Shown: piece by piece, positions 3,615-61,755 of the stretch
Numbering within the stretch: the stretch's first letter is position 1
Layout of the letters: each line of letters starts with the position of its first letter
IMG/VR virus record: IMGVR_UViG_3300037042_006682
Location: 97,209-161,208 of that record
Reading direction: 5' to 3' (one strand)
DNA from: a virus
DNA: 64,000 nt
Translations under genes and position numbers: made by a program
Notes under the pieces: generated by a model
Databases searched by the model: none
What the model was told of the DNA's origin: nothing
The model's input: only the letters and a program-made list of their open reading frames with translations

Positions 3615-4418
3615 TCATCGCCGTCCCCGCGTCACGATGGCACCAGGCCCCGCCGCGAACAGCTCAAAGGCTATCGCATAGACCTGCCGCAGGAGGCCAG
3701 GGTGCTCGCCCGCATCCAGCGACTCCGCGAGGTCCAACACGCTCATCTCCGCGCGGTCCGCCCGCCGCTTGAGGTCCAGGTGGCAGCGGTCCCGCACCTC
3801 GCGATACAGGCGGTTCCAGGTCTCGCGGTAGTCCGCCCCCGTGAGCTGGCAGAACCCCCGCACCACCTGGTTGATCTGCATGCGCTCCGTCAGCTCCGGG
3901 GCCGGCAGGGCCGGTGCCGGGAGGGCCCGTAGCGCCTGATCGCCCGCCGCGGCGCGCGCCTCAATAGCGTCCACCCGCTGCGCCAACGCCGCCGTCTGGC
4001 GCTCCTGCTCAGCCAAGGCCTGCACCGACTCCAGCAACAGCTCGATCTGCGTCTTGGCCCGTCCCGCCACCGCGTATTGCCCCGTGCGCCGGATGCGCGG
4101 GAGCACCTCCCCCGCGATCCACTTCTGGAACGGAAGGGCCATCGGCTTGTCCGATCGGGCCAGGAAGAAATAGAGGCCCTGCTCGGAAAGGCAAAGGATT
4201 TCCTGCACTCCGCCAGGGGTCGGTATTGGATACCGCCCCTTCCACTCCTCCGGGATGTGGTCCGTCATGCGCTTGGCATTGTCTGCTGTCGATTCAGGAT
4301 ACCCCAGGGCCAACGCGACATCTCGCGCCACCCACCAGGGCTCGCCCTCGATCAGCTCGACGCGCACCGCCCGTTGCTCAAAATCAAACACCTGCACCAC
4401 CGCTTGCTGCTCGCTCAT
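3615..4418 (-). CDS. Bro-N domain antirepressor-like protein with coiled coil and C-terminal domain
   Basis: FDFEQRAVR..GEPWWVARDVALALGY..LSEQGLY..RSDKP.ALPFQKWIAGEVLPRIRRTGQY. Confidence 0.9.
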   Translation of the reverse strand: MSEQQAVVQVFDFEQRAVRVELIEGEPWWVARDVALALGYPESTADNAKRMTDHIPEEWKGRYPIPTPGGVQEILCLSEQGLYFFLARSDKPMALPFQKWIAGEVLPRIRRTGQYAVAGRAKTQIELLLESVQALAEQERQTAALAQRVDAIEARAAAGDQALRALPAPALPAPELTERMQINQVVRGFCQLTGADYRETWNRLYREVRDRCHLDLKRRADRAEMSVLDLAESLDAGEHPGLLRQVYAIAFELFAAGPGAIVTRGRR

Positions 4419-7144: not shown

Positions 7145-7621
7145 TTACCCCACCGCACCGCCGCGTGTCAAGCCCTCCACAAGCGCCCGCAGGCGCTGGC
7201 TCAGCGACCGGGCCTCGCCCTTCAGCGTCCATGGCCCCTCGAACTCCGCGCGCCTCTTGCCCACGAGCTTGTAGTACTTCGCGTCCTTCGCGGCGTGGTT
7301 CCGGTCCCGCTGGTGCCTCTGGATGTACTTGCGCCCGCGCGGCGTCTGCTGGTGCGGCTTCCGCCGCTTGAAGTACGGCAGCTTGGGCCCGTGGTGCAAC
7401 GCCGCGACCCCGCGCGCGATGGCGTGCGCCTTCGGGGCGTCCGAGCGCCGCGGGGGCGTCTTCTTCCGCAGCCCCCCCACGATCGCCACCACGGCGTGCC
7501 GCGTGTAGGGGTCCGCCGCCCGCGGCTTCTGCACCTTGATCGCGGCCCCCCCATGGGGCGTCTTCCCCTCGATCAGGGCCCGCAGGCGCGCGCTGAGCCG
7601 CTCCCCGCGCGTCAGCGCCAC
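7145..7621 (-). CDS. Highly basic protein bracketed by two LSxRLRAL(I/V)EG motifs; putative internal head protein
   Basis: GTG start; K/R/H-rich core; motif at both termini. Confidence 0.7.
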   Translation of the reverse strand: MALTRGERLSARLRALIEGKTPHGGAAIKVQKPRAADPYTRHAVVAIVGGLRKKTPPRRSDAPKAHAIARGVAALHHGPKLPYFKRRKPHQQTPRGRKYIQRHQRDRNHAAKDAKYYKLVGKRRAEFEGPWTLKGEARSLSQRLRALVEGLTRGGAVG

Positions 7622-7625
7622 GGCG

Positions 7626-7949
7626 TCAGAGGCTCCACGCATCCCAGACCGCCTCGAACTGCTTGTACGCCTCGGCCACGGCCGCCTGCGCCAGGAACAG
7701 CGTGTGGGCCTGCGTCGCCTCCCACGTGGCCTCGTAGTCCTTGCGCGGCACATCGACCTCGTAGTGCATCAGCGGGCGGATCCCCGCCATCTCCTCCCGC
7801 TTCGCCTTCAGCGCCCGCACCGCCTGAGCCAGGGCCTCGGCCGCCTTGAGGACGGGGTCCACCTTGGGCACCACCTTGCGGGCCTTGATGACCGCCTCGG
7901 GGACCTTTACCTCGTCCAACTGCCGGATCAGCGCCTTCATGCTCCTCAT
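7626..7949 (-). CDS. Leader-bearing hypothetical protein (MRSMKALIRQLDE)
   Basis: ATGA overlap; GGAGG RBS. Confidence 0.75.
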   Translation of the reverse strand: MRSMKALIRQLDEVKVPEAVIKARKVVPKVDPVLKAAEALAQAVRALKAKREEMAGIRPLMHYEVDVPRKDYEATWEATQAHTLFLAQAAVAEAYKQFEAVWDAWSL

Positions 7950-8305
7950 ACGGGCCTCCCCATCGCGAGTTCCCACGCGTCCGTCACGCCCCACTTGGCC
8001 TCGTCAATAGCGATCAGTTGCTCCTGGTACGCCGCCATCGCCTGGCGGTCCGCCCGGTCCAGCCCCTTGACCAGCTTGGCCAGGTCCGCGACCTCCTTGT
8101 CGAACCGCGCCACCGCCGCATGCACGCCCTTGAGCACGGCCTCCGTCGGCACGTGCATCTGCTGGTTCCGCTGGTCGATCTCGCGCCGCCGCGCCTCCTT
8201 CGACTGGAAGTCCCCCGGCGCCACCTCGCGCCGCCGCTGGACCCCCTCGATCACCGCGATCCGCCGCTTGACCCCCTCGATCACCGCGCTCATCCGCTGT
8301 GCCAT
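7946..8305 (-). CDS. Leader-bearing helical protein (MAQRMSAVIEG)
   Basis: GGAGGAG RBS; tight gene packing. Confidence 0.75.
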   Translation of the reverse strand: MAQRMSAVIEGVKRRIAVIEGVQRRREVAPGDFQSKEARRREIDQRNQQMHVPTEAVLKGVHAAVARFDKEVADLAKLVKGLDRADRQAMAAYQEQLIAIDEAKWGVTDAWELAMGRPV

Positions 8306-8307
8306 CG

Positions 8308-8652
8308 TCACTCCTCCGTGTCGGAGTGGGCCGCGCCGTGCGCGAACCCCACCTGGAATAGCAGCCCATCGACGGCCTTGTTCAGCGCGATCACGGCCGC
8401 CTGCATGCGGGGGTCCGTCGCCGGGCGGTCCAGCCCCTGGACCAGCTCCGCCACGCGCCCCGCCGCCTGCTGCAGCGCCGCCGCCTTGGCCCCCGCGGCC
8501 TGGCGCGCGTTGGCCACGCCCCGCGCGTCCTGCGGGGAGCGCCACGCCACCTGCATCCCGCTGGTGACCTGCCCCCAGTTCGCGGGCACGCCCTCGGCCA
8601 GCAGGCCCGAGGCGACCAGGCTCGCCTCGATCATCGTGCGCATGCGCGTCAT
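8308..8652 (-). CDS. Leader-bearing hypothetical protein (MTRMRTMIEA)
   Basis: AAGGAGG RBS. Confidence 0.75.
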   Translation of the reverse strand: MTRMRTMIEASLVASGLLAEGVPANWGQVTSGMQVAWRSPQDARGVANARQAAGAKAAALQQAAGRVAELVQGLDRPATDPRMQAAVIALNKAVDGLLFQVGFAHGAAHSDTEE

Positions 8653-8661
8653 GGCGCCTCC

Positions 8662-9051
8662 TTACTCGGTCGCACCCCTGAATTTCCATTCCTTCTTGGC
8701 GAAGTCGTACCACGCCTGTAGCAGCGTGATCCCATTGCTGCCGCCAGCCCTGTGCTCCCACGAAATATCCAGTGGGATCTGCATCATGTTGTGCTGGGCG
8801 CTGTAGTGCCCCGCGCCCTTCACGACCACCGTGCTCATCACGGCCTCGAAAACCCCCGCCTTGCCCACTAGCTCGTCGCTCTTCACGATCAAACGCCAGG
8901 GTCCAGCAGACGACAACTTGGCCGTCAACTTCACCGGCACCTTGAGGGCCTTGGAGACCTGCTGCTCCAGCGGCTTGATGTCGATCTCGTCCTCGCTCGG
9001 ACCCTCAGTGGCCTCGTGCAACCGCCCGATCAGGGTGCTCATCTTCTGCAT
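8662..9051 (-). CDS. Leader-bearing hypothetical protein (MQKMSTLIGRLHEA)
   Basis: GGAG RBS; globular composition. Confidence 0.8.
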   Translation of the reverse strand: MQKMSTLIGRLHEATEGPSEDEIDIKPLEQQVSKALKVPVKLTAKLSSAGPWRLIVKSDELVGKAGVFEAVMSTVVVKGAGHYSAQHNMMQIPLDISWEHRAGGSNGITLLQAWYDFAKKEWKFRGATE

Positions 9052-9119
9052 GGTATCTCCATTCTCAGGGGCGCCACCGGCGCCGCGTTTGCTACTTCGC
9101 GAGCCCCGCGCGCGCCGCC

Positions 9120-9641
9120 CTACGGCAGCACGTAAATGGTGCTGACCCCGCGCTTGCGCGCCTCCGCCTGGGCCGCCTTGACCGCCTCGGCATAGAGCAT
9201 GTTGCCGCCGGGGGCGAACGCCTCGTCCGACCGCATGTCCGGGTCCTGCGTGCCAATGCCGAACATCCAGTTGCCGCGCCCCTTCGGGGCCGCCCCGTGG
9301 TTGAAGCGGTACAGGTTGGTCTCCACGTTGACCTTGCCGGTCGCCTCTTCCAAGCGCCGGATCAGGCTCTGCATCTTCGTCATGGTGTCCTCACCCTTGA
9401 TGGCCCGCTCGTAGGCCGCATCTTTGCCATGGGCCGCCGCGTCGCGTCCATGCGCCCGGATCGCCCGCTTGCCCTTGGCCGTCTTGTGCTTCGTGCCGGG
9501 CTCGTAGTAGCCGGCCTTGTTCCCGCCCGCCTTGCAGATCGCGAAGGCCGCGCCCTTGTCCTTGCCACCCTTGGTGACGCCCGCCACGCAGTGCCGCATG
9601 TAGGCGTCCGCCCGCTCGATCAACGCTTGCATCGACTCCAT
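9120..9641 (-). CDS. Two-module leader-bearing protein with a probable internal start at 9383
   Basis: MESMQALIERA...; internal GAGGA-cacc-ATG giving MTKMQSLIRRLEEA. Confidence 0.8.
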   Translation of the reverse strand: MESMQALIERADAYMRHCVAGVTKGGKDKGAAFAICKAGGNKAGYYEPGTKHKTAKGKRAIRAHGRDAAAHGKDAAYERAIKGEDTMTKMQSLIRRLEEATGKVNVETNLYRFNHGAAPKGRGNWMFGIGTQDPDMRSDEAFAPGGNMLYAEAVKAAQAEARKRGVSTIYVLP

Positions 9642-9651
9642 GCTCGCCTAC

Positions 9652-10023
9652 TCACACGCTCGCCAGGATCCGCACGGGGACCGGGCTCGTCGGCGCCGTG
9701 GTCCCCGGCGTGCCGGGGCTCGTCACGCAGCAGCACGTGAGCCCCACCCCGAACGCCAGGCCCTCCGGCACCGCGAACGACCGCTTGACCGCCGCGGGGA
9801 CCATCAGCACGAGGTGCGGGTCCACGGACCCCGGCGCCGCGCTCACCGCGTTGTAGAACTTCACGTAGCTGGGGGCCCCCGCGTTGCCCGTGTTGTCGGC
9901 CTCCACGAGGTACAGCGTGCAGGGCGCCCCGAAGAGGTTGTTCTGCGCCGTCACGCCGAGGGCCGTGTCCACCGCGAGGCGGGTCGCGACCGGGTTCACC
10001 TGGGTACTGACTGCCATCACCAT
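9652..10023 (-). CDS. Small beta-rich protein, possible virion surface/decoration protein (no leader)
   Basis: GAGG RBS; A/T/V/G-rich sequence with YVKFYN...GLAFGVG. Confidence 0.7.
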   Translation of the reverse strand: MVMAVSTQVNPVATRLAVDTALGVTAQNNLFGAPCTLYLVEADNTGNAGAPSYVKFYNAVSAAPGSVDPHLVLMVPAAVKRSFAVPEGLAFGVGLTCCCVTSPGTPGTTAPTSPVPVRILASV

Positions 10024-10041
10024 GCTCGTCCTCGTTTCCTC

Positions 10042-10067
10042 GCGCTGCGCATGCGCATGCGCAGCGC
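10042..10067. promoter_or_regulatory. Perfect 26-bp palindrome GCGCTGCGCATGCGCATGCGCAGCGC (YR motif family)
   Basis: Intergenic, abutting a stop codon. Confidence 0.85.
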
Positions 10068-11440
10068 TACCTTACCACCGCGCCCCCCGCCCTGTCCGCA
10101 AACTCGCGCAGGAGGGCCCCGAGGCCCCCGTCAACCCCCTCGCTCTGTGCCGCCCGCCCCAGCGCCAGCGCCTCGAAGCGCGCCCGCTGCGGGCCCGTCA
10201 GCACCACGCCGTTATAGTCCCCCAGCACATAGGCCGCGAAGGTCTCCGCGAACTCCTCCACCGCCGACTCTGCCCCGTAGGCCGTCGGCGCGGGCACATA
10301 CCCCGCCTGCGGGCCCTCGCGCTCCTGGTCCGCCTTGCTGCGCGGGTCGAACCACGCCGCGAAGCGCGCCCGCGCCCCCGCCTTCATCACCTTGTACCAA
10401 TAGCGATGGCCTAGCTCGTGTACTGCGATCTCCGCCACCACATCGGGCGTCCACCACCCCTTTGGGTTCAGGACAATCTCCTCGCTCGTGTTGTAATGCC
10501 CCGCAACCTTAAAGTTCACCCCAGACTTAGCCTTCTTTAACGTAAGCGCACGCGCCACAGGACGCACAAAAATCTCCCCATACCACACGCCCCCCATCCC
10601 CCGCTGTACCAGCGCCCGCTGCGCCGCTTGCAACCCTGCATGCACAGCCCGCATTACACCTATGTTCACGCTGCGCTCCCCAACGGGCGCTCCCGCAATG
10701 TCATCGGATCGTGCCAGGGCACTCAAATCCACTTGTGCACCTGGATCTGTCACGACTTTCATGCGCCCTAGACTGTACTCTAGCGGCGGGGCCTCCGCGA
10801 CGACCGCGGCCGTGTTCGGCGAGACCTGCAACAGTTTAAGATAGGCGCGCAAGGCCGCCTGCACCTCGATGTCGACCGCCTTAACCGCATTGCCCTCGTT
10901 GCGCATCTCAAGCTGCCACGAGGTTAGCTCCCCCTCGTCCGTGGCCCCCGTTTGCGAGCGATTGCCCATGCGATCATTAAAGGCGCGCTTGGCCTCCGAA
11001 TCTGGATATTCTACATCGAACCATTGCTGCTCCCGCCCCATCATATTTTGTAGCGCCTTATGGGCTACATCCAGATGCGGCAAAACCCCCTGCTCCGGCG
11101 CCTTTGAAAGAGCATGCCCCGCCACACGGGCTGGCATCTTTAGCACGGCATAGGCTCCCGCTTTGTAAGGGCGCCGCTCCATCGCAGTAAGGGCCGCCTT
11201 CGCAACATCCTGCGGCACCGCTATCCCAGCCGCCCGCACCAAGGCATCCTTCAGCGCCGCGATCCGAGCCTGCCCCTCGGCAAACCACGCGAGCACCTGG
11301 CCGCGATCTTTAGGGTCGCGGATCTGCGCCACCGTGGCCGCGGCCTTCACCCACTGCCCCCACCACTTGCGGACCCCCGCCAGCCACGCCTTGGTGCCCG
11401 GCTCGGGGGCCGCCTCCAGCAGGGTCAGCAGCTCACGCAC
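10067..11440 (-). CDS. Leader-bearing protein with a C-terminal zincin-like metallopeptidase domain
   Basis: GTG start MRELLTLLEA; AVHELGH (HExxH) and downstream PTAYG...EEFAETF. Confidence 0.8.
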   Translation of the reverse strand: MRELLTLLEAAPEPGTKAWLAGVRKWWGQWVKAAATVAQIRDPKDRGQVLAWFAEGQARIAALKDALVRAAGIAVPQDVAKAALTAMERRPYKAGAYAVLKMPARVAGHALSKAPEQGVLPHLDVAHKALQNMMGREQQWFDVEYPDSEAKRAFNDRMGNRSQTGATDEGELTSWQLEMRNEGNAVKAVDIEVQAALRAYLKLLQVSPNTAAVVAEAPPLEYSLGRMKVVTDPGAQVDLSALARSDDIAGAPVGERSVNIGVMRAVHAGLQAAQRALVQRGMGGVWYGEIFVRPVARALTLKKAKSGVNFKVAGHYNTSEEIVLNPKGWWTPDVVAEIAVHELGHRYWYKVMKAGARARFAAWFDPRSKADQEREGPQAGYVPAPTAYGAESAVEEFAETFAAYVLGDYNGVVLTGPQRARFEALALGRAAQSEGVDGGLGALLREFADRAGGAVVR

Positions 11441-11828
11441 GGCGCACCTTCGCAGCCAGCGTACCGAGGGCGACCCCCCAGTCCGTCGCCGCGCTCGCCG
11501 CGCCCCGCAACCGCTGGTCCGCCGCCCGCACCGCGGCATCCTTCATCTGGTCCCCCGGCCAGAACAGCCCCATGCGGCCCAGCTCATAGCTCGTGGCTAG
11601 GGACCACACCTTCGCATCGTGCTTCTTCTTGACCAGGAGCACCTCGCGGTCAAAGCCCTCGACCCGCGCGTAGGCCCCCCAGTAGGAGCGCGCGGTCCCC
11701 GGCCGATCGCGCCCCATGATCCAGCCCTCCCACGTGATCGTCACGGGGCGCTTCGCCCCCGCCACCACCACGCGGACCGCGCCCGTGCCCTCGACCAGCG
11801 CCCGTAGGCGTGCGCTCAAGCAGGTCAT
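11433..11828 (-). CDS. Leader-bearing hypothetical protein (MTCLSARLRALVEG)
   Basis: GAGGAGG RBS. Confidence 0.75.
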   Translation of the reverse strand: MTCLSARLRALVEGTGAVRVVVAGAKRPVTITWEGWIMGRDRPGTARSYWGAYARVEGFDREVLLVKKKHDAKVWSLATSYELGRMGLFWPGDQMKDAAVRAADQRLRGAASAATDWGVALGTLAAKVRRA

Positions 11829-11838
11829 CGCGCCCTCC

Positions 11839-12696
11839 TCAGTCCATCGTGCTGAAGATGTGGTACGCCAGCTTCGCATCGGACAGCGCCTTGTACAGCT
11901 CGCGGAACGTCATGCGCTTGATGTCGCTGAGGTTCGCCTGCACCCACAGGTAAAAGGCCTTGATCGCCGTCTTCTTTGCCCCATAGGTCGGCGGCATGAT
12001 GATCGGCGTGTCGTCCCCCCCGTGGCCCGGCCGCGGCTTCTCCGACACGGAGAAGTCCGTCAGGGAGGCCTCCAGCGTGAAGGTCGGCGTCTCGACCTTG
12101 ATCTGCGCCCCCGCGGCGCCCTGCGCGGGCTCCACATCGACCCCGCGCGACGACCCCTCGGTGAACTTGACGCGGTCCGCATACGCGGCCTTCCCACTCT
12201 CGGCATCCCGCACCTGCGCCGCCGTCTCGCGCGCGATCTGCACGGCCTGCGCGTACCCCTTGGCCTTCGCAATCGCCTTCAAGCCAGCCTCTAGGATCGC
12301 CACCGCCTTGGCGCTAGCGAAGCCGTCGTTGCGCGGGTCGAACCCGCTGAGGGTGAACGAGGACACCGTCTTGCCGCGCTTGCCCGCGTTGGCGAGGTCC
12401 AGGACATGCAGGTTCGTCATGAAGCGGTGCAGGCGCATGCCGTTGCGCTCCACCGTCTGCGCCATGGGCACCCCCGCATTCTGGTCCACATAGAAGCGCT
12501 CGGGCGCCTCCGCCTTGGGCAGCGCCTGCTGCGTCGCCCCCTGGATCACCGCCGCCATGCCCTGCGCGGGGCTCGCCGGGGGCGCCGGGGGCGTCGCCAC
12601 CGTCTGCCCCTTGGGGTCCTTCCCGCCGGGCAGCACGCGCAGGGTCACGCCCGTCTTCGTCGTCGTCTCCACCCGCTCCAATAGCTGCCGCATCAT
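11839..12696 (-). CDS. Leader-bearing protein (MMRQLLERVE), probable paralog of the C-terminal domain of 12708-13793
   Basis: AAGGAG RBS; shared GKRxxxV and C-terminal helical pattern. Confidence 0.8.
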   Translation of the reverse strand: MMRQLLERVETTTKTGVTLRVLPGGKDPKGQTVATPPAPPASPAQGMAAVIQGATQQALPKAEAPERFYVDQNAGVPMAQTVERNGMRLHRFMTNLHVLDLANAGKRGKTVSSFTLSGFDPRNDGFASAKAVAILEAGLKAIAKAKGYAQAVQIARETAAQVRDAESGKAAYADRVKFTEGSSRGVDVEPAQGAAGAQIKVETPTFTLEASLTDFSVSEKPRPGHGGDDTPIIMPPTYGAKKTAIKAFYLWVQANLSDIKRMTFRELYKALSDAKLAYHIFSTMD

Positions 12697-12707
12697 GAGT
12701 CTGCTCC

Positions 12708-13793
12708 TTAGCTCCACGTCGAAGACGTGCCTTTACGGGCAATTTTATGATCGTCCAACCAGGCCCCTAAGTCCTTGTAGGCCACGCCCTTGAGGGCTGC
12801 GGGCTGCGCCTGCAGCAGCTTGAACAGCTTGGCCGCGGCACTCGGCCCCTTCTCCACGGTCCCCGTGTAGTAGGGGCTGCTCTGCTGGAAGTCGCTGTTC
12901 GGCGAGTAGGCGCGGAAGGTCTTCCACGTCACCTTGAGCGCGAAGTCCTTGCCGTCCACGACCAGCTCCGTGTCCCCGCCCTCGGGGGCCACGCGGCCCG
13001 CCGGCACGGCCTGTTCCCGCCAGCTCCCCTGCTGCTGCAGCCAGTCCGGCCGGTGTGCCCCCTCCCACTTCGCGATGACCGCGCCCTGCGCCTCGGCCAC
13101 CGCCTTCCCGACCTTGTCCTTGATCGCGTCGAAGCCGTCGCTGTCCGCGAGTTTGGCAAAATGCAGGATGTTCTGCGGGAGCATCGCGTCCCAGGCGCGC
13201 GCCATCTGCCCCCCGCGGTACCCCGTCCCCAGCTCGGCCACGCGCAGCTGGCGCTTCCCCTTCACGGGCAGCTCCTCCAGCCGGTAGCTCTCCCCGTAGT
13301 AGCCGATGGTGAGCCGCGCTCCCGCCCCTGTGAATACCATGGTGTCGTTGCTGCGCTTCTCCAGCTTCTCCAGCAGCACGCGCAGCGAGGCCTGCTGCGC
13401 CCCCTCGCTCCGCTCGCCCTGGCCCAGCGCACGGGAGGCCGCATCCTTCGGCGCGTACCCGTCCTTCTGCGCGGAGGCATACGCCTTCTGGAGGCGCTCC
13501 CACCACCCCGCCACGGCCTGCCCCGCTGCTGCCTCCGACTTAAAGGCCTGCCCCTGGAACATCGCCTCCCAGGTCGGCAGCCCCTTGCGATCGACACGCC
13601 ACGCCGTGCCCTCGTTGTTATCCTGAATGATCCGCACGGCTACGTCCACGGGGCCCACCTTGAAGGTCCGCCCGTAGGCCATCCGCTTGCCATCCGGGCT
13701 CGGGTGCTCCTCCCATCCCTTGAGGTAGAGCGCCTTCGCCTCCTTGTGTATGTCAAACTTCTCCAACAGGGTGTGTATCGTCGGGATAGTCAT
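12708..13793 (-). CDS. Two-domain leader-bearing protein (MTIPTIHTLLEK; internal SLRVLLEKLE)
   Basis: TGATG overlap; GGAGG RBS. Confidence 0.8.
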   Translation of the reverse strand: MTIPTIHTLLEKFDIHKEAKALYLKGWEEHPSPDGKRMAYGRTFKVGPVDVAVRIIQDNNEGTAWRVDRKGLPTWEAMFQGQAFKSEAAAGQAVAGWWERLQKAYASAQKDGYAPKDAASRALGQGERSEGAQQASLRVLLEKLEKRSNDTMVFTGAGARLTIGYYGESYRLEELPVKGKRQLRVAELGTGYRGGQMARAWDAMLPQNILHFAKLADSDGFDAIKDKVGKAVAEAQGAVIAKWEGAHRPDWLQQQGSWREQAVPAGRVAPEGGDTELVVDGKDFALKVTWKTFRAYSPNSDFQQSSPYYTGTVEKGPSAAAKLFKLLQAQPAALKGVAYKDLGAWLDDHKIARKGTSSTWS

Positions 13794-15397
13794 CACTTGC
13801 CTCCGTAGACCGCGTGGTCCGCCGCCTTGACGAGCAGCTTGCAAATCGCCTGATACTTGGGGTCGTGACCGCTCGATGGAATCGCGCGGCTCTCCGGGGC
13901 CACCTTCACCATCCCGCTCAGCATCCGCCCGAGGTACATCACGATCTCGGGATGCACCTTCTGCAGCTTCCCTACCGCCTCGCGTATCCAGTCGAGGTTG
14001 ACCTCCTCAGTCATCCCCCCCACCGCCTCGGTGAAGCCCTTGGGGTCCTTCAGGGCGATGTCGACCGTGCGCCCCATGCGCTGCTGCACCACCAGGAAGC
14101 GGTCCCCCTCGACCTCCTTGGCCACCGCCAGGAGGTAGTTCTGGTTCAGCGCCCGCTTGCCGTCCGCCGCCGCCATCAGGGCATCGTTCTTCTTCGCCGA
14201 CTGCCCGCTCGTCGTCGCGCTCGGGCTCGCCAGCAGCACGGCCTCCGCGGCCTGCGGGACCCCGCTGATCAGCTGCCAGCCCTTGCGCCCCTTCCAGAGC
14301 GTCACGAAGGCCTGGGAGTCCGCCGCCGGCCCGTGGTCCTTATTCACAAAGACCAACCACTCCTTGCTCGTGCCCTCCGCCCACGGGGCCATCCCCGCCC
14401 GGCGGAAGGCCGCCTTGGCCGCCCCCTCCAGCGTCCGCTCGCTGGGCGCGCGGTCCCCCGCCGCCTCGCCCATGGCCCCCGCCTTCTTGCGCGCGATCGT
14501 CCCGCACAAGGCCTTGGGATCGCTCACGCCCCCCTTGGCCTTCATGTACTTCACGCAGTTCCCAAACTTCTCCCCCTTGCGCCCCTTGAAGGCCCCCGTC
14601 TTCGGGTTGATGTACTTCGCGCTGAGCTGCTGCTGCTTCGACGCCTTCTTCTTCTTGGCCGCCGCCTCCATCAACGCCGCGACCCAGTGCCCCACGGCCT
14701 CGCTGGCCTCCTCGGCGTCCATCTCCTCGTCGTCGTCCTCGGGCCCCTCGCAGTCCTCGCAGGCCGCCCCGTCGCTCTCATCCCGCGCCTCGCAGGCCCG
14801 CGGCTCGCCCGTCACCGGGCACACACCCTCGTCGCCCATGTCCTCGCCCTCGTCCCCACCGTCCTCCTCGTCCTCGTCGTCCTCCACCGCCTCAAACCTC
14901 TTCGCCGCCGGCGCGAAGGCCTGCGTCGTGCTGAAGTACCGCTGCAGGATGAGATCCGCCATCTCGCGCCCGCTGATCCGCACCATGAGCAGGTACCAGT
15001 AGATCGGCATGTTCTCGGGCTGCGCCCGCATGAGCCGCGCCGCCTTCGGGGCCACCTTCGCGATGTTGCGCAGCGCCAGCTTGAACGCCTCGCGCGGCCG
15101 GTTCGCCAGCACGTCCTGCGCGTCCGCCATGTTGTCCGCCCCCAGCAGCGCGGGGAGGTCCTCGCGCGGGATCGCCTTCAGGAGCGCGCGCTGGTTGTCA
15201 AAGATCATGTTGGAGAGGTCCAGCTTCCCCTGGTCATCCTTCCACGCCGCCGGCGCGTCCTTCTCCCACATCCTGAGGATCTTGCTGCTCACCTTGAAGG
15301 CCCCCGGCCGCACCGGGGTGTCCTCGCCCGCCATCGCCATCGCCGCGGGGCCCGTCTGGCGCTCCATCAATGATCCCAACCGCTCGCTCAACCGCAT
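13793..15397 (-). CDS. Multi-module leader-bearing protein with acidic linker and basic Cys motif
   Basis: MRLSERLGSLMER; D/E-rich tract; AALMEA; FGNCV...ALC. Confidence 0.8.
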   Translation of the reverse strand: MRLSERLGSLMERQTGPAAMAMAGEDTPVRPGAFKVSSKILRMWEKDAPAAWKDDQGKLDLSNMIFDNQRALLKAIPREDLPALLGADNMADAQDVLANRPREAFKLALRNIAKVAPKAARLMRAQPENMPIYWYLLMVRISGREMADLILQRYFSTTQAFAPAAKRFEAVEDDEDEEDGGDEGEDMGDEGVCPVTGEPRACEARDESDGAACEDCEGPEDDDEEMDAEEASEAVGHWVAALMEAAAKKKKASKQQQLSAKYINPKTGAFKGRKGEKFGNCVKYMKAKGGVSDPKALCGTIARKKAGAMGEAAGDRAPSERTLEGAAKAAFRRAGMAPWAEGTSKEWLVFVNKDHGPAADSQAFVTLWKGRKGWQLISGVPQAAEAVLLASPSATTSGQSAKKNDALMAAADGKRALNQNYLLAVAKEVEGDRFLVVQQRMGRTVDIALKDPKGFTEAVGGMTEEVNLDWIREAVGKLQKVHPEIVMYLGRMLSGMVKVAPESRAIPSSGHDPKYQAICKLLVKAADHAVYGGK

Positions 15398-15423
15398 CGC
15401 TCGTCCCTCATTCCCTTGGTTAT

Positions 15424-15441
15424 CGCGCATGCGCATGCGCG
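15424..15441. promoter_or_regulatory. YR palindrome CGCGCATGCGCATGCGCG
   Basis: Intergenic between the stop at 15448 and the start at 15397. Confidence 0.8.
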
Positions 15442-15447
15442 GCTCGC

Positions 15448-16227
15448 TCATCTCTCGCCCGGCAGCGCGAAGTCCACCGGCACGCGCGCCGCCCGCAGGC
15501 CCGCCCGCAGCGCCGCGAGGTCCATCCCCGGCAGCGCCGCCGCGTGCTCGTCCACCCAGCGCGCGAACATCGTCCCCACCGCGTACTTGCCCGCGGCCCC
15601 CGTGCGGATCGCCACGTCCCGGCCATCCCACATGCGCAGGCTCACGGCTGGCCAGCTGTAGGACAGCACGAAGTCCTTCCCCCGCAGCTCCTCGCTGCTA
15701 TGCGCCAGCCCCACGGGCCGCCGCTGGCTCTCCTCAAAGGGCGTCCGCAGCGTGGCCGCCCCGTCGATCAGGAACCGCTCGGGGCCCTGGAGCCCGCGGT
15801 TCGCGGCCTCCGCCGCCGCCTGCACCCGCGCCCAGACGCGCGGCCACCCCGCCTCGCCGTAGGCCGCCCGCAGCGCCGCCCGGAAGCCCTCCACCGCCGC
15901 CTCGACCATGGCCCCCGCGCGCCCCGCCTCGACCCGCTGGGCATCGCGCGCCGCCCACTGCGCCTTCGTCAGCTTGCGCCCCCGCGGCGGGGCCGCCATG
16001 GGCACCCGCGGCGTCGCCGGCACGCTCACGCGCCCCACGTGCCCCAGCCCCGTGAGGTCCACCACGAGCACATCCACGAGGTCGCGCGGATACCGCGTGC
16101 CCTGCGCGCAGAACACCCGCACGTCGTCGACCGCCCAGCCCAGCTCGGCGTTCCACACGCTCTCCACGCTCGCGTTGTACCGGGTCCCCCGCTCGATCGC
16201 TTCCAGCAGTTGTCGCATCGCAGCCAC
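15448..16227 (-). CDS. Leader-bearing hypothetical protein (MAAMRQLLEAIE)
   Basis: GGAGG RBS; GTG start. Confidence 0.75.
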   Translation of the reverse strand: MAAMRQLLEAIERGTRYNASVESVWNAELGWAVDDVRVFCAQGTRYPRDLVDVLVVDLTGLGHVGRVSVPATPRVPMAAPPRGRKLTKAQWAARDAQRVEAGRAGAMVEAAVEGFRAALRAAYGEAGWPRVWARVQAAAEAANRGLQGPERFLIDGAATLRTPFEESQRRPVGLAHSSEELRGKDFVLSYSWPAVSLRMWDGRDVAIRTGAAGKYAVGTMFARWVDEHAAALPGMDLAALRAGLRAARVPVDFALPGER

Positions 16228-16275
16228 GTCTACCCTCCGGCAAGCGCGCGCCCCCTCTCGTCTGCTCGCTGATCG

Positions 16276-16304
16276 ACTCTACCGACCCGCCCGCCCCCTG
16301 CCAA
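16276..16304 (-). promoter_or_regulatory. Possible sigma70-type promoter TTGGCA-N17-TAGAGT
   Basis: 17-bp spacer; intergenic, upstream of the start at 16227. Confidence 0.5.
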
Positions 16305-16424
16305 GAAATCCCCACGCCCCGCTCGCGCTTTACCCCGCCGCGAGCCACGCGAGCACCGCCAGGACGAGCCCCGCCACGGCCAGCCCGATGAGCGCCGCGA
16401 GGGCCACGTCGCGCCCGCCCGGCC

Positions 16425-16739
16425 CTACGCCCACGCCGGCCCCACCGGGGGCTGCGAGATCGGCCCCTCGGCCGCCCCCGTCGCGCGCAGGGCCTCCGTG
16501 AGGGCCGCCACGCACAGCGCCACGTGCCGCCGCGTCGCCGCCGCATCCCGCCCCAGGCCCCCGGCCTCCGCGAGCTTCGCCAGCAGCGCCGCCGCATTGC
16601 GCACCGCCGCCCAGGCGTCCGCCGCCTCCGCGGGGTCCCCGCCCCGCTTGCCGTCCAGCAGCAGCCCCAGCGCCGCGCGCATCAGCGCGTTCGCCTCGGC
16701 CTCCGCCAGCGCCTCCATCCTCTCGATGAGCTGTTTCAT
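16425..16739 (-). CDS. Leader-bearing helical protein (MKQLIERMEALAE)
   Basis: Leader motif; tight gene packing. Confidence 0.7.
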   Translation of the reverse strand: MKQLIERMEALAEAEANALMRAALGLLLDGKRGGDPAEAADAWAAVRNAAALLAKLAEAGGLGRDAAATRRHVALCVAALTEALRATGAAEGPISQPPVGPAWA

Positions 16740-16749
16740 GGCCCCCAGC

Positions 16750-17055
16750 CTACCGCCGCGCGGGCCGCCCCGCAAGCTCGTCCCCCGCCCCCGATGGCAC
16801 GAGCCCCGCCGCCTCCGCCTTCTCCTGCAGCGCCTTGAGCGCGAACGCAAACAGCTCCGCCGGGGGATGTCCATAGGCCCGCCCCAGGGCCCGCGCGCGC
16901 TCCCAGGTGTCCCTCGTCACGAGCATCATCACCAGGTCGTCGTGCTGGAGGGCCTCATCCGGCCGCGGGTCGAGCTTGCCATCCTCGGCCCCCGCGATCT
17001 CCCGCTGCGGCCCCCCGCGCGGCCCCCCGCGCGCCTGTGCCCGCATCACCATCAA
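16750..17055 (-). CDS. Small hypothetical protein, possibly ribbon-helix-helix-like
   Basis: Overlaps the upstream stop; VMMLVTRDTWERARALG...PAELFAFAL strand-helix-helix pattern. Confidence 0.55.
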   Translation of the reverse strand: MMVMRAQARGGPRGGPQREIAGAEDGKLDPRPDEALQHDDLVMMLVTRDTWERARALGRAYGHPPAELFAFALKALQEKAEAAGLVPSGAGDELAGRPARR

Positions 17056-17810
17056 ATGGCCGTCTGGTCGAGCTTGCCAACGCCGTGCCCCGCCCCGTCC
17101 CAGGTCTTGTCGTCAAACTTGTACGGCGCCGCCCCGCTCCCCACCGCATCCTTCTGCCGCCCCACGTAGGCCACGCCCTTCATGGGCTGCTGCACCACCT
17201 GCCGGAACGTCAGGGCCACCGTGGCGAGCCGTGGCACGCCGTTCGCGAAGCAGAGGCTGTACGTCACGTCGCAGCCCGTCATCACCGCGAAGATCGCATC
17301 CCCGCCCTTCTCGTTCCAGTTAAGCCCCGGCGCGTGCAGGATCGCGATCGGCGGGGGGTACGCCTCCACGTGCGTCTCCCCCTGCGTGTACAGCGGGTAA
17401 CAGAACGCCCGCAGGTAGCGGATGGCCCCCGCGACGTCCGCGTTCCACCCCGGCGCGTCCGCCCCCTTCGTCATCCCAAAGGGGTCGAAGAGCTTCTCCA
17501 TCACCGTGCGGTCGCCCTCCGGCTTCATGAGCCGGCTCATGGTGACCTCGAACGAGATCGTGCGCCCCCCGTTGCTGCCCCACGTCGCGAGCGCGTGCGA
17601 GGCCCCAGGGATCTCGCTGAAGTTCCAGCCGATCTCGATCGTGTCGGAGATGCTCTCAGGCCAGTACTGGAAGGCGCGCTGCGGGAGCGCGGGCTTCCCC
17701 GCGTCCGCCGCCAGCGCGTCGATCCCGCACATGCTCATCCACGCCGGCTTCTCGCCGGTGGGCCCGTCCATGATAATGCTGGCGATGCCGCCGAAGACCC
17801 CGAGGGCCAT
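17052..17810 (-). CDS. Tail tube initiator / contractile-system tube-like baseplate protein
   Basis: FQYWPESISD..W..IPGASH..GRTISF..PPI..CDVTY..FxNGxPRxATVxLTF. Confidence 0.75.
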   Translation of the reverse strand: MALGVFGGIASIIMDGPTGEKPAWMSMCGIDALAADAGKPALPQRAFQYWPESISDTIEIGWNFSEIPGASHALATWGSNGGRTISFEVTMSRLMKPEGDRTVMEKLFDPFGMTKGADAPGWNADVAGAIRYLRAFCYPLYTQGETHVEAYPPPIAILHAPGLNWNEKGGDAIFAVMTGCDVTYSLCFANGVPRLATVALTFRQVVQQPMKGVAYVGRQKDAVGSGAAPYKFDDKTWDGAGHGVGKLDQTAI

Positions 17811-17836
17811 GGCCTACCTCCCGCGGCGCCCCGCGC

Positions 17837-18745
17837 TCAGTACTCGACCCCTAGCGCGTCATCCACCAACTTGGCTGTCCGCGCATCGAGCTTGCGTGCT
17901 AGCGTCCGCAGGGCCACGGGGGAATAACCCATCTTGCGCATCATGGGATTGGCCCGCTGCAGGAACATCTCCAGGGGGGTCCCCAATGCCTTGACCAGCG
18001 TCACGACCGGCTTGTCCAACCCGCCCCCCATCAAGGTCGTGAGCTTGTCCTGCAGCAACAGGGCATACACATAGGCCAACGCGGCCTCCGCGTCTTCTGG
18101 ATTCGTGTCCATCACGGCCTCCGCGACCGCCTTGCCCTTGCCGCCCGCCGCGCAGCCCCCCTCATCATCCGCCTTGGCCTTCCCCTTCCCCTTGGCCGCC
18201 TTCTTCTTGCCCTTGCGCCCTTCGTCGAGGATCGCCCGGAGCGACGCCAGCAGGGGGTCCGCCCCCTCCATCTCGGGCTCCGCGTCCGCCGCGCTGCCGT
18301 TGGGCTCCTCGGGCTCCAGGTCCTGCGCGCCCTCGTCCTCCAGGTCCGCGCCCTCGTCGCCCTCGGCGATGGCCCAGCCCACGGAGCCCTCCGCGTCGAT
18401 CGCCAGCATGGTCTCGTCGTCGAGCATGATCACGGCGCCCGGCGGGTCCTCATCCAGCGCCACCCCCACGACCTCGGCCGTGGTGTCCGCCGGCACCTCG
18501 ACGGCCTCGCCGTCCTCCGTGTACGCAATCGTGTCGCTGACCGCGACGAGGGGCACGCCCTCCTCCCAGCCCGCGAACAGGTCCCCCTCAGCCATCGCGT
18601 TGGGCTCCTCCGGCTCCAGGGCCTCCCCGTCGCCTTCAAACCCCGCGTCCACCATCTCGCCTTCGGCCTCCGCGCCCTCGCGCACCACGGCCACGGCCTC
18701 GCCCGCCTGCCCCTTCAGGGCCTCCATCAATGCTCGCATCGTCAT
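17837..18745 (-). CDS. Very acidic leader-bearing protein (MTMRALMEA), possible prohead core/scaffold-like
   Basis: GAGGAG RBS; E/D-rich, LEPEEPN twice, internal SLRAILDEG followed by a Lys-rich patch. Confidence 0.75.
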   Translation of the reverse strand: MTMRALMEALKGQAGEAVAVVREGAEAEGEMVDAGFEGDGEALEPEEPNAMAEGDLFAGWEEGVPLVAVSDTIAYTEDGEAVEVPADTTAEVVGVALDEDPPGAVIMLDDETMLAIDAEGSVGWAIAEGDEGADLEDEGAQDLEPEEPNGSAADAEPEMEGADPLLASLRAILDEGRKGKKKAAKGKGKAKADDEGGCAAGGKGKAVAEAVMDTNPEDAEAALAYVYALLLQDKLTTLMGGGLDKPVVTLVKALGTPLEMFLQRANPMMRKMGYSPVALRTLARKLDARTAKLVDDALGVEY

Positions 18746-25243: not shown

Positions 25244-28200
25244 TTAGTACCGCGTGATCTGATTGGGCATCCGTGCGTCACACGGATCGGGGATGAAATT
25301 CTGCTTATACTTCGCCACCCCCACATGACACTGGAAGTTGCTGATCGATCCCGCCATCGACCGACTCGCCGCCTGCGCATCATTGAAAAACGTCGGGGTT
25401 GCCGACGAGGCCCCGACCAACGTCGTCGTCGTGACGCTCTCGGACATATAGCCATTCTTAAACATCTTCAACGAGGACCCACTGCGCACGACCGCGATAT
25501 GCGTCCACCCAATACCGAGAACCGACGAATTCACGGTCGCCGCCAAGGTCCGCGTAACATCGTACAACATCGCCTGGATGATTTTGCCTGTCGTCTGGAC
25601 AATCTGGAACCCATAGTTGTTGCCCCCCATCAAGGCGCATCCCCCCACCACGATCCCATACACCCCTGAACCGGGGGCACTCGTCAAGTGGACCCAAAAC
25701 TCAATCGTGAAGTCCCCCGCCCCCAACGACAGCGGCATCCGAATGGCCGTCTGTGGCACGACCTCTACACCAAACGCCACGACCCACCACGGCTGGCTCA
25801 TCGACCCGTTACATTCAATCTTTGGAGACGCTTTTACTGTCGGAGATACCTTGCGCGACCCATGCACCCAATGCTGGCACTCCGCCGTGTAGGCCCGGCG
25901 ATACTGATCCACCGTGGTCGGCGGCGTAAAGGCCCCCGTCCACAACGCCTTGCCCACAAAGATCCGCAACTGGTCGGCATACCCCGCCGTCGTCTCATTC
26001 GTCGTCCCATACGCTGCCCACCCCAACGCCACCCAATTTATGAGGGAGTAGTTCGACGCGACGACCTGCGAGCACACGGAAACCCCACCGACATACAGCG
26101 TGATCGTCGTTCCCACCCGCACTAACGCGACGTGCTGCCAGACATTCGCGATGCGCGACGTATACGAGGGCACCACGTACTGGACCGATCCGTTATAGAC
26201 GGAAAAACAGAAATAACCGCTAGTGTTGGTGTAAATCCGGATCGCCCCATATGTCTCCACCGAACTTAACGGCCAATTACACGAATTCACAAACAAATCG
26301 AATTCCGTTAAACTGTATGATCCTCTTGTCCAGAAATCGACCGTAAAATCCTGCGTACCAAAGACCGTCCCATTGACCGGCGTCGCGATCCACCCCGGTG
26401 TCGATAAAACATCATGACTGAATTCAGCCAGTGCAACACGATCATACGGCATCACCTGCGTCGTCCCCGTCAAAAACTCGGGTGACACCGAGGCAATACT
26501 ACCGCTATGCACGAAATCCCGCCGATCCGTCGGCGGCGTAAAACTGGTCGTCCACAAGGCCGTCCCCTTCAACACCTCAACACAGGCAATGGCCCCCAAG
26601 ATCAACTGCTGTCCCGACGGATTAGCCCCCCCACTATCTCCAATGGTAAAATACCCGGACATGTTGTCCCAATACTCGGTGCTCGATGTCTCGCTGCCCC
26701 CACTAACCCCGTCAATATAGACCGTCGTCGTCGTCCCACTGCGCACGATCGCCGCGTGATGCCAATTACCATCATTAAGCGTCACGCCTGCGCGGGAGGC
26801 CGTAATCGCGTGCTCCGTTGCCCCCGCATTGACCGCCTTCCATCCCAGTTGTGTCGCACTATTGATCGACAGACGGAACGCCACGCTCGTATTAGAAAGT
26901 GCCACACCACGGTTCAAAAGAATCTTAGGGTACGCCGTCCCCGCATAACGAAACCACAGGTGGATCGTGAAGGGGTCATTGGCTAGGTAATACTTGTTCC
27001 CCGTACCAGCTTCATAAATGGCTTCAAACTTTGTAAAGTCAAAGGCCGTCTGGACACAGCACGCCCGCGCCCCCGACTGGAAGGCGATCGCATACCCCAT
27101 GCCCCCAAAAGTGCGGTGCATCCGTTGATAGTTGGATGTCCCCCCCGTGCTGATCAGCCCCGCCGGACGCTCCGCCCGCCGGGCCATCGACCCCCCCGTA
27201 TTCGTCGCGACCGTCCCGCCCCTGACGGGCATCCCGCGATACTCGGACAAGGTTCCCCCCAAACTACCTGGGAAACTCATCCCATCGGGGCCAGCATCCA
27301 CCAGACGAAAGCCCAACCCCACCTCTACACTATTCCCACGCAGGAAGAACTTGACGTTGCTCATCTCCGCGTAGTCCGCCGTGGTCACCGGCGGCGTAAA
27401 GGGCGCCGTCCACCGCGCAGCGGCCGTGAACCGTATGTTCACCATCCTGCCATAATGGAACGCCGCCGACACACTACCCACCGTGAACGGTTGAGACGAA
27501 GACAGGCTCTGCCACGGCGTGGGTTGTGAACTGTATGCCGGTTCCACCCCGTTGACATACAACTTCCCCTGTCCCGCCCCCATCCCACTGCGCACAAAGG
27601 CCACATGCGTCCATTTACGTTGCGGCACCACTCCGGCCACAGAGACGACCGCATCCCCCGTTCCGCACGATAACGCCCCCGTTTTGGTCACCAGGAAAGA
27701 GTAATCGCTCGATCGACTGCAAATCTCGGTAATATATTGACTGGCATTATTCCACTCGCTGAACACCCAGGCATCCAACGTGTAATTCCCGTATCCTAGG
27801 TTAAACGGCGTGGTGCTACTCGTCTGGGCATACCATGTGGCTTCCAGGTGTTCCAATTGCTCTTCATCATCGACGAACACCACCGAACTGTTCTTACGCA
27901 ACATTTTTGTGGGCGGCGCGAAGTCCCCCGCATACAACGCCTGACCAATCGCAATGCGCAAACCAGCAATCTTGCCAAGAAAATAATTAACCGCTGTATA
28001 ATATCCAGTAAACTCCGCCGCTAACATCAATGGGGCACTTGTAAATTCCAAGACCGAGGAACCAATGCTAAAGGTCTCTGTCTTCCCATCAATGGCAAAC
28101 AACAGACTGCTACCCACACGACTGATCGCCACATGGTACCATCGAGACAACTCTAGCGTTACCGTACTATCCACAGTCACCGTCGCCCCTGACGCGGTTG

Positions 28201-59532: not shown

Positions 59533-59736
59533 CTACCGCCGTCGTCGCGCCCGCGCCGTGCTCGCCTCGCGCTGCCCCGCGCGCCGCTGCTCCATCTCCA
59601 TCTTCTCCCGCAGCAGCCGCTGGCGCCGGCTGTAGGGCATCGCCATCGCGTCGGTGTAGTTCAACCCCATGTGCTCGATGAGGGAGAACACATCCGACTC
59701 TAGCGCCCCGACGCTGCCGACGGGAAGAAAAAACCC
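59533..59736 (-). CDS. -1 frameshift extension of the tail assembly chaperone (GT-like)
   Basis: Slippery G GGT TTT at 59730-59736 leads into FFLPVGSVGALESDVFSL...AMAMPYSRR. Confidence 0.8.
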   Translation of the reverse strand, partial: GFFLPVGSVGALESDVFSLIEHMGLNYTDAMAMPYSRRQRLLREKMEMEQRRAGQREASTARARRRR

Positions 59737-60825: not shown

Positions 60826-61755
60826 TCAGGCGTCCTCGGGGGCGACCTCCGCCGCCACGAGGATGGCCGCCTCGCGCTCCACCTCAGCGTCCCCCTCGTC
60901 GATGTCGTACGCCACGTCGGGCGGGGCCGTCAGCGGGTCGCGGCCCTCCAGCACCGCCATCAGGAAGAACCGCCCGTAGAAGTACAGGCGCCCCTTGCCC
61001 GTGATGCGCGTGGTGCGGTCGATCACCGCGCTCCCCTCCTCCGTCTCGCGCACGTGCTCCACGATCACCATGATGCGCTGCTCGATGCTGCGCTGCGTGG
61101 GCTCATTGCGCCGGGGCCCCCGCTTGTGGACGAAGCCCTCCTCGCGCAGCCACGCGAAGAACACGTTCTGCCCCACACGCTTCCCCGTGCCCTGCGTGAT
61201 CGCCTTTGCGACCTGCCCCACGTAGTACGTGGTCGGGGAGTCCATCACGCTCGCCGCAAAGCTCACGAAGGGGGCCGAGCGCTCCCGGTAGCGCGCGAGC
61301 TGCTGCACCTGCGCCTCCGCCTCACGCCGCCCCTTGGCCTCCACGAGCCACGCCTCGGCGGAGGCGATCGGGTCGTTAAAGTCGGGCAGTCCCGGCGGCA
61401 CCGCGCCCGGCATTTCATACCGCCCCGTCTTGCGGATGCTGGGCAACACCTCCCCGGAGATCCACATCTGAAAAGGCAAGGCCCTTGGCTTATCGCTTCT
61501 CGCCAAAAAGAAATAGAGACCCTGCTCGGAAAGGCAAAGCATCTCGCGTATTCCCGCACTCGTCCCAAACGGTTTGGGACAACGCCACTGATCTGGAACT
61601 TTGGACATCAAACTGTTGATATCGCTGTTCGGCGAATACTCCAACACCTCAGCCACATCCTTCGCCACAAACCATGGTTCCCCTTCAATTACTTCAATCC
61701 GCACCTGATTGCCCTCGAACTCGAACGCCTTTGCGATCGCCCTCTCGTTGCTCAT
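60826..61755 (-). CDS. Bro-N plus ANT/KilAC antirepressor
   Basis: Start MSNER after AAGGAG; Bro-N motifs; GQNVFFAWLREEG..NEPTQRSIE..TTRITGKGRLYF. Confidence 0.92.
   Translation of the reverse strand: MSNERAIAKAFEFEGNQVRIEVIEGEPWFVAKDVAEVLEYSPNSDINSLMSKVPDQWRCPKPFGTSAGIREMLCLSEQGLYFFLARSDKPRALPFQMWISGEVLPSIRKTGRYEMPGAVPPGLPDFNDPIASAEAWLVEAKGRREAEAQVQQLARYRERSAPFVSFAASVMDSPTTYYVGQVAKAITQGTGKRVGQNVFFAWLREEGFVHKRGPRRNEPTQRSIEQRIMVIVEHVRETEEGSAVIDRTTRITGKGRLYFYGRFFLMAVLEGRDPLTAPPDVAYDIDEGDAEVEREAAILVAAEVAPEDA

Follow-up and report, generated by a model that had tools for sequence, protein, structure and literature searches.

In bacteriophage T4, propeptides of 10 to 20 residues target proteins to the scaffolding core and are cleaved off by gp21 after Glu, and the internal proteins of T-even phages are diverse, with only the targeting sequence conserved (PMC9026906, PMC3012670, PMC5694885). 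Within the T4 capsid targeting sequence, the determinants of targeting can be separated from those of cleavage, and a 2022 review proposes that the propeptide lets T4-like phages load various proteins (PMC9026906). One of these cargo proteins, IPI, is an anti-restriction protein (PMC3012670). Here, we report the analysis of a gene array in an uncultured phage (IMG/VR virus record IMGVR_UViG_3300037042_006682), located at 7145-18745 (minus strand) of a 64,000-nucleotide stretch (positions 97,209 to 161,208 of the record, hereafter the window), in which otherwise dissimilar proteins share a short N-terminal leader ending in hydrophobic-x-Glu. These leaders are probably T4-style capsid-targeting and protease-site tags, carried by fast-turning, head-packaged, and injected proteins, some of them polyproteins.

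As in the array, the T4 proteins IPI, IPII, IPIII, and Alt carry a short N-terminal propeptide ending in (L/I)-x-Glu on unrelated, often basic proteins; the S77 protease, Gp23, and Gp20 are homologous in both phages, and in both cases the passengers vary between related phages. T4 differs in having four tagged genes, in contrast to 18 here, 14 of them clustered in one array. Unlike in T4, the tags described here recur inside open reading frames (ORFs) as module joints, which gives polyproteins and allows gene fission and fusion at the tag, and the consensus is M-(R/K)-x-L-(I/L)-E rather than MKTYQEFIAE. That variable internal proteins carry a portable capsid-targeting propeptide is already textbook knowledge for T4; the distinct features here are the scale (18 genes, about 22 modules), the concentration of tagged genes in a single array, the reuse of the motif as a joint inside ORFs, and a consensus of its own in a deep, uncultured, high-GC (guanine-plus-cytosine) branch.

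The core and vertex proteins of T4 (gp67, gp68, gp22, and gp24) include the closest real matches to the leader, gp67 (MEGLIEA) and gp24 (MAKINELLRE), both cut by gp21. They differ in being conserved assembly proteins encoded beside the protease, whereas the array consists of variable orphans 70 kb from the head genes. More distant parallels exist outside the T4 superfamily. Encapsulin cargo-loading peptides are short, portable peptides that direct unrelated cargo into an HK97-fold shell; they are usually C-terminal, are not removed, and serve a nonviral compartment, and the likeness is one of analogy only. The polyvalent proteins of phages and conjugative elements described by Iyer, Burroughs, Anand, de Souza, and Aravind in 2017 are reportedly multidomain proteins, thought to be delivered with DNA and often carrying a zincin-like metallopeptidase. 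Each of these is one giant protein, whereas most modules of the array are genes of their own or parts of short fusions delimited by a prohead-protease motif. The inner-body and ejection proteins of phiKZ, 201phi2-1, and SPN3US are in many cases cut after Glu, some at several sites, and identical N-termini occur on diverged proteins (PMC5694885). Their motif is (A/S/G)-x-E, their propeptides often exceed 100 residues, and they form paralogous families in jumbo phages. Assignment of the array to this class was rejected, given a hydrophobic residue two positions before the Glu, short leaders, and no paralogy beyond two pairs.

The shared leader and the head genes

The window is the final 64 kb of a 161,208-bp contig (67% GC; estimated completeness, 88%) on which all genes of the window lie on the minus strand; the region upstream of the array encodes baseplate wedge, hub, and fiber-like proteins. 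ORFs were called by third-position GC (GC3), and start codons, which are predictions, were picked blind to the motif, with only codon type and ribosome-binding site considered. The array comprises 17 ORFs (A1 to A17; Table 1) plus a hydrophobic ORF of 34 amino acids (aa), and with curated starts a leader opens 14 of the 17. Three interchangeable forms were distinguished, namely, M-(R/K/Q)-x-L-(I/L/M)-E, a spaced form, L-I-x-x-L-x-E, and a longer form, LSxRL(R/G)xL(V/I/M)E. Hydrophobic-x-E lies within the first 8 to 20 residues of these 14 ORFs and of 4 further ORFs, and the position two before the Glu is occupied by L, I, M, or V in every leader.

The pattern was enriched in the array under the motif-blind starts, as the check proposed with the initial annotation had called for. 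A leader regular expression matched within the first 16 residues of 10/17 array ORFs, in contrast to 5/169 other ORFs (Fisher p = 4.5e-9), and the T4 site defined a priori, [LI]xE, was found in 8/17 versus 26/169 (p = 0.004). With automatic starts, the strict [LI]xE form was present in 8 to 10 of the 17, the remainder having M or V at the first position. Three of the five outside hits belong to a second small cluster at the opposite contig end (genome 308-1838), where a fourth gene was recovered when a longer stretch of the N-terminus was read. The 18 tagged genes of the contig total 3,732 residues (about 7% of the genome), encode about 22 modules, and range from 78 to 534 aa in length. The leader was absent from A2, A3, and A11 and from every identified baseplate, tail, or fiber gene of the window.

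Leaders are amphipathic (median helical hydrophobic moment, 0.57, versus 0.39 for other N-termini; p = 4e-5), and the leader of A10 forms a helix in the predicted structure of that protein. Leader codons vary synonymously between copies (Leu as CTG, TTG, CTA, or CTC; Glu as GAG or GAA), which argues that the leader is conserved as a peptide. Behind it, the passengers are unrelated by all-against-all BLASTP, except for a basic module that A12 shares with A17 and for the pair B1/B2. Pfam and PHROGs scans of the array ORFs and of three of the four ORFs of the second cluster returned no family other than a weak tube-like match for A2. Further copies of the leader occur internally in A12 (residues 90-100), A7 (136-146), A6 (239-246), A1 (168-176), and A17 (140-150).

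The initial annotation, made from the window alone, had listed 14 start coordinates, and each of them marks the start region of an ORF on the minus strand, in the coding frame with high GC3; the first residues that it quoted needed adjustment, the best start codon in several cases lying 1 to 4 codons upstream (MTMRALMEA at 18745, MRLSERLG at 15397, and MTIPTIH at 13793). Its count of about 13 tagged proteins became 14 in the array plus 4 elsewhere on the contig, with three array ORFs excluded. The cut site it proposed, (L/I)xE, stands at its Glu end and is widened by M and V two residues earlier. All five internal copies that it had placed at module boundaries are present, and its statement that tail and fiber genes lack the leader agrees with the baseplate and fiber genes of the window. 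That the passengers are unrelated was borne out apart from the two pairs named above.

No protease or capsid gene had been seen in the window, which is correct; both lie about 70 kb away on the same contig. The major capsid protein is a Gp23 homolog (E = 8.5e-63) with no more than 32% identity to the capsid protein of any cultured phage, and the portal is of the T4 Gp20 type (Pfam Portal_T4, E = 1e-42) and carries an intein. The prohead protease that the initial annotation had suggested looking for is a 921-aa protein with a Peptidase_S77 domain (Pfam E = 1.5e-10; PHROG 207, head maturation protease, E = 8.5e-34). Its protease domain is interrupted by an insertion of about 390 aa, an intein, immediately after ELDHP. 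With the intein excised in silico, the protease aligned along its length to T4 gp21 (NC_000866), with ELDHP/ELNHP and GVSSRGFGS/GVSSRGLGS as the conserved catalytic His and Ser regions. Because an S77 protease alignable to gp21 accompanies Gp23 and the portal, the phage is placed, by homology, in the T4 superfamily with the gp21-type enzyme that the cargo idea requires. A second, gp24-type, Gp23-like vertex gene was not found on the contig, and megablast of the array against GenBank phages gave no nucleotide match.

The protease also has a 360-aa coiled-coil C-terminal extension with many L-x-E sites, which may be a fused scaffold; phmmer of the C-extein against PDB sequences gave no match.

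N-termini of gp21-cut T4 proteins, read from NC_000866, include gp67 (MEGLIEA), gp24 (MAKINELLRE), and Alt (MELITELFDE), as well as IPII and IPIII (MKTYQEFIAE), gp22 (MLKEQLIAE), and gp21 itself (..QLLIE). The array leaders match these propeptides in length, polarity pattern, and end, and the start of gp67 could nearly pass for one of them. The capsid protein was checked for the same site, as had been suggested, and LLE and LSE are present near the T4-like position: sites occur at LLE-33, ILLE-52, and NLSE-63, and by BLASTP register the equivalent of the T4 Glu65 cut falls at about residue 48, some 4 residues from 52. The capsid protein reads KWGQLLEG where T4 gp23 reads KWKPLLEG. Many (L/I)xE-type sites are also present in the protease and in the adjoining core candidates. 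In T4, the leader-bearing alt gene directly follows the baseplate-tube genes 48 and 54 (NC_000866).

Relatives of the array

Gene neighborhoods of relatives were read for loci reached by pattern scans (one metagenome scan and one viral scan). Two metagenome contigs, L015 and L016, share the gene order of the contig from the fiber genes through the array. Between L015 and L016, 99% identical stretches flank wholly different cassettes, in which the leaders are kept and the passengers are exchanged; passenger n15 bears different leader forms in the two.

Nine metagenomic homologs of A6 were found, and in an alignment of seven of them the leader is the most conserved part and invariant. Among them, modules are gained, lost, or replaced at the leader, at the internal V-x-A-L-(M/V)-E-A, and at the (M/L)-G-E-A joints; one homolog has an extra module flanked on both sides by MGEAA, and in another the leader is fused straight to the second module. 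Fission is exemplified by A7, residues 137-361 of which correspond (83% identity) to a stand-alone 226-aa gene of L015 that starts with MMRQLLEKLEK, the A7 counterpart being the internal SLRVLLEKLEK. A12 shares its leader and basic module with part of a 365-aa, three-module protein of L016, whose third module stands as a leader-bearing gene of its own in L015. Residues 18-150 of A17 match residues 250-384 of a 499-aa protein of L016, where the basic module is preceded by P-M-A-E-G (A-L-I-E-G in A17) and followed by LRMLVEG and a further 115-aa module. Because the same motif runs into this module in L016, the A17 end reads as truncated, and its terminal leader copy looks like the remnant of a truncated polyprotein. 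Every homology breakpoint that could be located falls on a hydrophobic-x-Glu motif, in line with the suggestion that some of the cargo is made as polyproteins. Fission and fusion at the motif would be expected if the joint is cut, because one gene or two then yields the same products.

A protease had also been expected among the passengers, and A10 carries a zincin-type metallopeptidase domain. A total of 307 homologs were found in a representative library. In 40 sequences of the family, H341, E342, H345, and E395 are invariant, which gives HExxH plus a downstream Glu in the C-terminal half; longer relatives match Peptidase_Mx and SprT-like. The best PDB matches of the predicted structure (predicted local distance difference test score, 80) are all zincins but weak (best E = 0.018), and A10 is classed as a zincin-type metallopeptidase family from these weak fold hits together with the invariant residues.

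In many uncultured phages, 10 to 25 leader-like residues precede the first conserved block of the A10 homologs, W-x-x-G-h-R-K-W-W (h, hydrophobic), examples being ..ALLER, ..QLVERE, MRNLIES, and MRALIRQLEE; in long forms, upstream modules end in h-x-E-E just ahead of this block. The zincin domain itself occurs in proteins of up to 2727 aa. All four IMG/VR records with a full-length A10 homolog encode S77, as do five more that match only the C-terminal half of A10, whereas jumbo-phage records sharing only the zincin domain mostly gave no match to the S77 Pfam model. In four S77-positive loci (L025, L029, L030, and L033), neighboring genes share lineage-specific leaders ending in h-x-E, and two relatives of 58% GC (L022 and L024) carry the same leaders as the array. 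L033 keeps an A2-type tube gene nearby. The A10 family was not found in cultured phages, where the sole match was partial and came from an uncultured record. Gibbs sampling of the N-termini of the A10 family first settled on the beginning of the conserved domain instead of the leader and then gave a noisy matrix, and this test is given little weight.

Searches of viral contigs with the A6 alignment and with a neighboring 790-aa baseplate-region protein gave no hits. The search with A2 reached only a distant phage of 39.5% GC (L014), without a leader array beside the gene.

Proposed mechanism and alternatives

From the motif enrichment, the homologs of protease and capsid protein, and the breakpoints at the motif, we infer targeting, cleavage, presence in the virion, and injection. 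In front of each cargo protein or module would stand an amphipathic helix of 7 to 15 residues that closes with hydrophobic-x-Glu. At the N-terminus, this leader would dock the cargo on the scaffolding core during prohead assembly, in analogy to the capsid targeting sequence of T4. The gp21-type serine protease would then cut after the Glu, so that the leader is removed and fused modules are separated, and the mature cargo (very basic proteins, acidic/basic mosaics, and a zinc metallopeptidase) would remain in the head alongside the DNA and be delivered into the host upon infection. Since the tag would be portable and the joints cut, recombination at the leader could swap, split, or fuse cargo genes without loss of function, and this exchangeability is proposed to underlie the rapid turnover between near-identical phages. 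In a broader and more tentative version, which we consider possible though doubtful, a large uncultured branch of the T4 superfamily uses the prohead-protease site as a universal plug-in joint through which any tagged module, whether a gene of its own or part of a polyprotein, may be packaged, released by cleavage, and injected; in that case, the array would represent a fast-exchanged arsenal of host-takeover or anti-defense effectors, including a conserved injected zinc protease, far larger than that of T4 and evolving through recombination at the tag.

Depletion of the motif inside the cargo is consistent with this mechanism. Beyond the first 22 residues of the tagged proteins, 16 [LI]xE sites were observed versus 22.2 expected from per-protein shuffling (ratio, 0.72), in contrast to 331 observed versus 238.6 expected in the other proteins of the phage (ratio, 1.39). 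The cargo has about half the usual [LI]xE density, which fits proteins that survive a protease of such specificity.

Several points weigh against tags of the T4 kind. The phage is uncultured, and the system is known here from genes alone. The motif is short, and the residue two before the Glu (L, I, M, or V) is broader than the textbook T4 rule. The depletion just described is modest (P = 0.09 alone) and significant only relative to the genome-wide excess. An intein splits the protease gene, and activity of the protease therefore presumes splicing. The sites in the capsid protein are equivalent to that of T4 by position only, and the internal copies in A1 and A6 are not demonstrated homology breakpoints. 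The matrix trained on the leaders of other phages was noisy; still, three of its top five proteome hits were array N-termini. The array also sits in a baseplate and fiber module, not beside the head genes. Because T4 alt likewise adjoins 48 and 54, the position of the array by baseplate genes and around a tube-like gene does not speak against the head as its destination.

A weaker form of the tag reading would have hydrophobic-x-Glu serve only as a cut joint or propeptide, with head entry set by other features, or with the proteins processed but not retained or injected. The internal copies need only be cleavage sites, and the two determinants are separable in T4 (PMC9026906), yet the whole leader is kept on unrelated passengers and in relatives, including residues 4 to 8 positions upstream of the Glu, and is amphipathic like the T4 sequence; we regard cleavage alone as unlikely. 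Somewhat less likely is that the leader addresses another destination, such as the tail-tube lumen, the baseplate, or the membrane, as its surroundings (baseplate and fiber genes, an enclosed tube-like gene, and a small hydrophobic ORF) could suggest: no identified tail or baseplate protein bears it, the capsid propeptide and the T4 head-core proteins share its form, T4 alt is a head protein despite its place next to 48/54, and the leader has no signal-peptide-like hydrophobic stretch.

The shared start could instead act at the level of the nucleic acid and have no peptide function, as a scar of recombination or cassette insertion or as an element for translation initiation. Cassettes swap exactly at the leaders between 99% identical flanks, and for that reason the leader DNA very likely serves as a recombination site as well. 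As a full account this is highly improbable, since leaders differ synonymously (protein-level conservation with free synonymous change is largely what was seen), the peptide pattern is kept across phages of 54 to 68% GC, and the motif stays in frame within long ORFs. Divergence of all tagged genes from one ancestor, with only the N-terminus kept, would suit a tandem arrangement in which A12/A17 and B1/B2 share passenger similarity, and is even less probable: no other pair is similar beyond the leader, lengths run from 78 to 534 aa, one passenger belongs to a widespread zincin family, and orthologous n15 passengers carry different leader variants in L015 and L016. Passenger paralogy was rejected on the all-against-all BLASTP. 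We give least credence to a recognition sequence for a modifying enzyme, whether in a system like those of ribosomally synthesized and posttranslationally modified peptides or with a radical S-adenosylmethionine partner. Such systems also typically place a shared N-terminal tag on unrelated small proteins, but no Radical_SAM match was found anywhere in the contig, and the tag, which recurs at polyprotein joints, terminates in the cleavage motif of a protease encoded on the same contig.

If the capsid-targeting reading is true, about 20 candidate injected effectors, of unknown fold, can be named from this one locus of an uncultured lineage. The locus would then also show a route of cargo exchange by cassette swaps and fusions at the cut site and provide phage engineers with a second capsid-targeting tag, distinct in sequence, for the packaging of proteins. 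Virion proteins that are injected become active ahead of all phage gene expression and are prime candidates for anti-defense and host takeover. A leader ending in the phage's own protease motif could also serve as a bioinformatic rule for virion cargo in metagenomic T4-like phages.

Gene content of the array and neighboring features

Table 1. Genes of the array and the prohead protease gene (window coordinates unless marked; start codons are predictions)
Feature	Coordinates	Strand	Length (aa)	Leader	Remarks
A1	17837..18745	(-)	302	MTMRALMEA	70% identical homolog with the same leader in L015/L016; very acidic N-half, internal SLRAILDEG, Lys-rich patch, C-terminal domain
A2	17052..17810	(-)	252	none	Weak Pfam CIS_tube match; 95% conserved in L015/L016
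A3	16750..17052	(-)	~100	none	Conserved ORF
A4	16425..16739	(-)	104	MKQLIERMEA	90% identical homolog in L016
Small ORF	16330..16434	(-)	34	none	Strongly hydrophobic; overlaps the A4 end; conserved in L015/L016 (8957-9061)
A5	15448..16227	(-)	256-259	MRQLLEAIE	
A6	13793..15397	(-)	534	MRLSERLGSLME	Multimodule; internal AALMEA and (M/L)GEA joints
A7	12708..13793	(-)	361	MTIPTIHTLLEK	Two modules joined at SLRVLLEKLEK (residue 136)
A8	11839..12696	(-)	285	MMRQLLERVE	
A9	11433..11828	(-)	131	MTCLSARLRALVEG	
A10	10067..11440	(-)	457	(M)RELLTLLEA	GTG start; N-domain plus zincin-type metallopeptidase domain (HELGH ... E395)
A11	9652..10023	(-)	123	none	Conserved small protein; noncargo by the leader criterion
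A12	9120..9641	(-)	173	MESMQALIERA	Basic module, internal MQSLIRRLEEA, second module
A13	8662..9051	(-)	129	MQKMSTLIGRLHEA	
A14	8308..8652	(-)	114	MTRMRTMIEA	
A15	7946..8305	(-)	119	MAQRMSAVIEG	Second copy, RRIAVIEG
A16	7626..7949	(-)	107	MRSMKALIRQLDE	
A17	7145..7642	(-)	158-165	..RLSARLRALIEG	Isoelectric point, 11.7; basic module, then orphan LSQRLRALVEG 8 residues before the stop (within 7145-7200)
Prohead protease	genome 24437-27202 (L004 5437-8202)	(-)	921		S77 domain

The weak Pfam match suggests that A2 is a tail-tube or baseplate-tube-like structural gene inserted in the array and not cargo. A2 and its counterparts in two very distant phages, L014 (9881-10600; 39.5% GC) and L033 (1039-1770; 61% GC), encode a tube-like protein with a conserved FQYWPES, and the A2-type gene seems, from this conservation, to be a core baseplate or tube gene of a wider group. 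The 34-aa ORF is possibly a small membrane protein. In A15, the leader is duplicated in tandem (..SAVIEG, 4 residues, ..IAVIEG).

A 499-aa leader-bearing polyprotein of L016 (17516-19015, plus strand) has an HExxH-type motif, HELCHH, in its first module, and because of it a second metallopeptidase-like cargo may exist in the clade. Outside the array, a 52-aa ORF at window 59533-59691 (minus strand), just upstream of a 1108-aa protein, starts with MFSLIEH and is a possible further leader-bearing small gene.

No tRNA genes were found in the window. A single 1523-aa ORF among the fiber-like genes (25244-29815, minus strand) has 53 to 57% GC in a 67% GC genome and is probably a gene for host recognition that was acquired recently; another island of low GC is located at about 46 to 49 kb of the window. 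Two paralogous genes, one downstream of the array (3615-4418, minus strand) and the other close to the opposite end of the window (60826-61755, minus strand), begin almost identically (..FEFEG..VR.E.IEGEPW), in a manner reminiscent of Bro-N or antirepressor domains.

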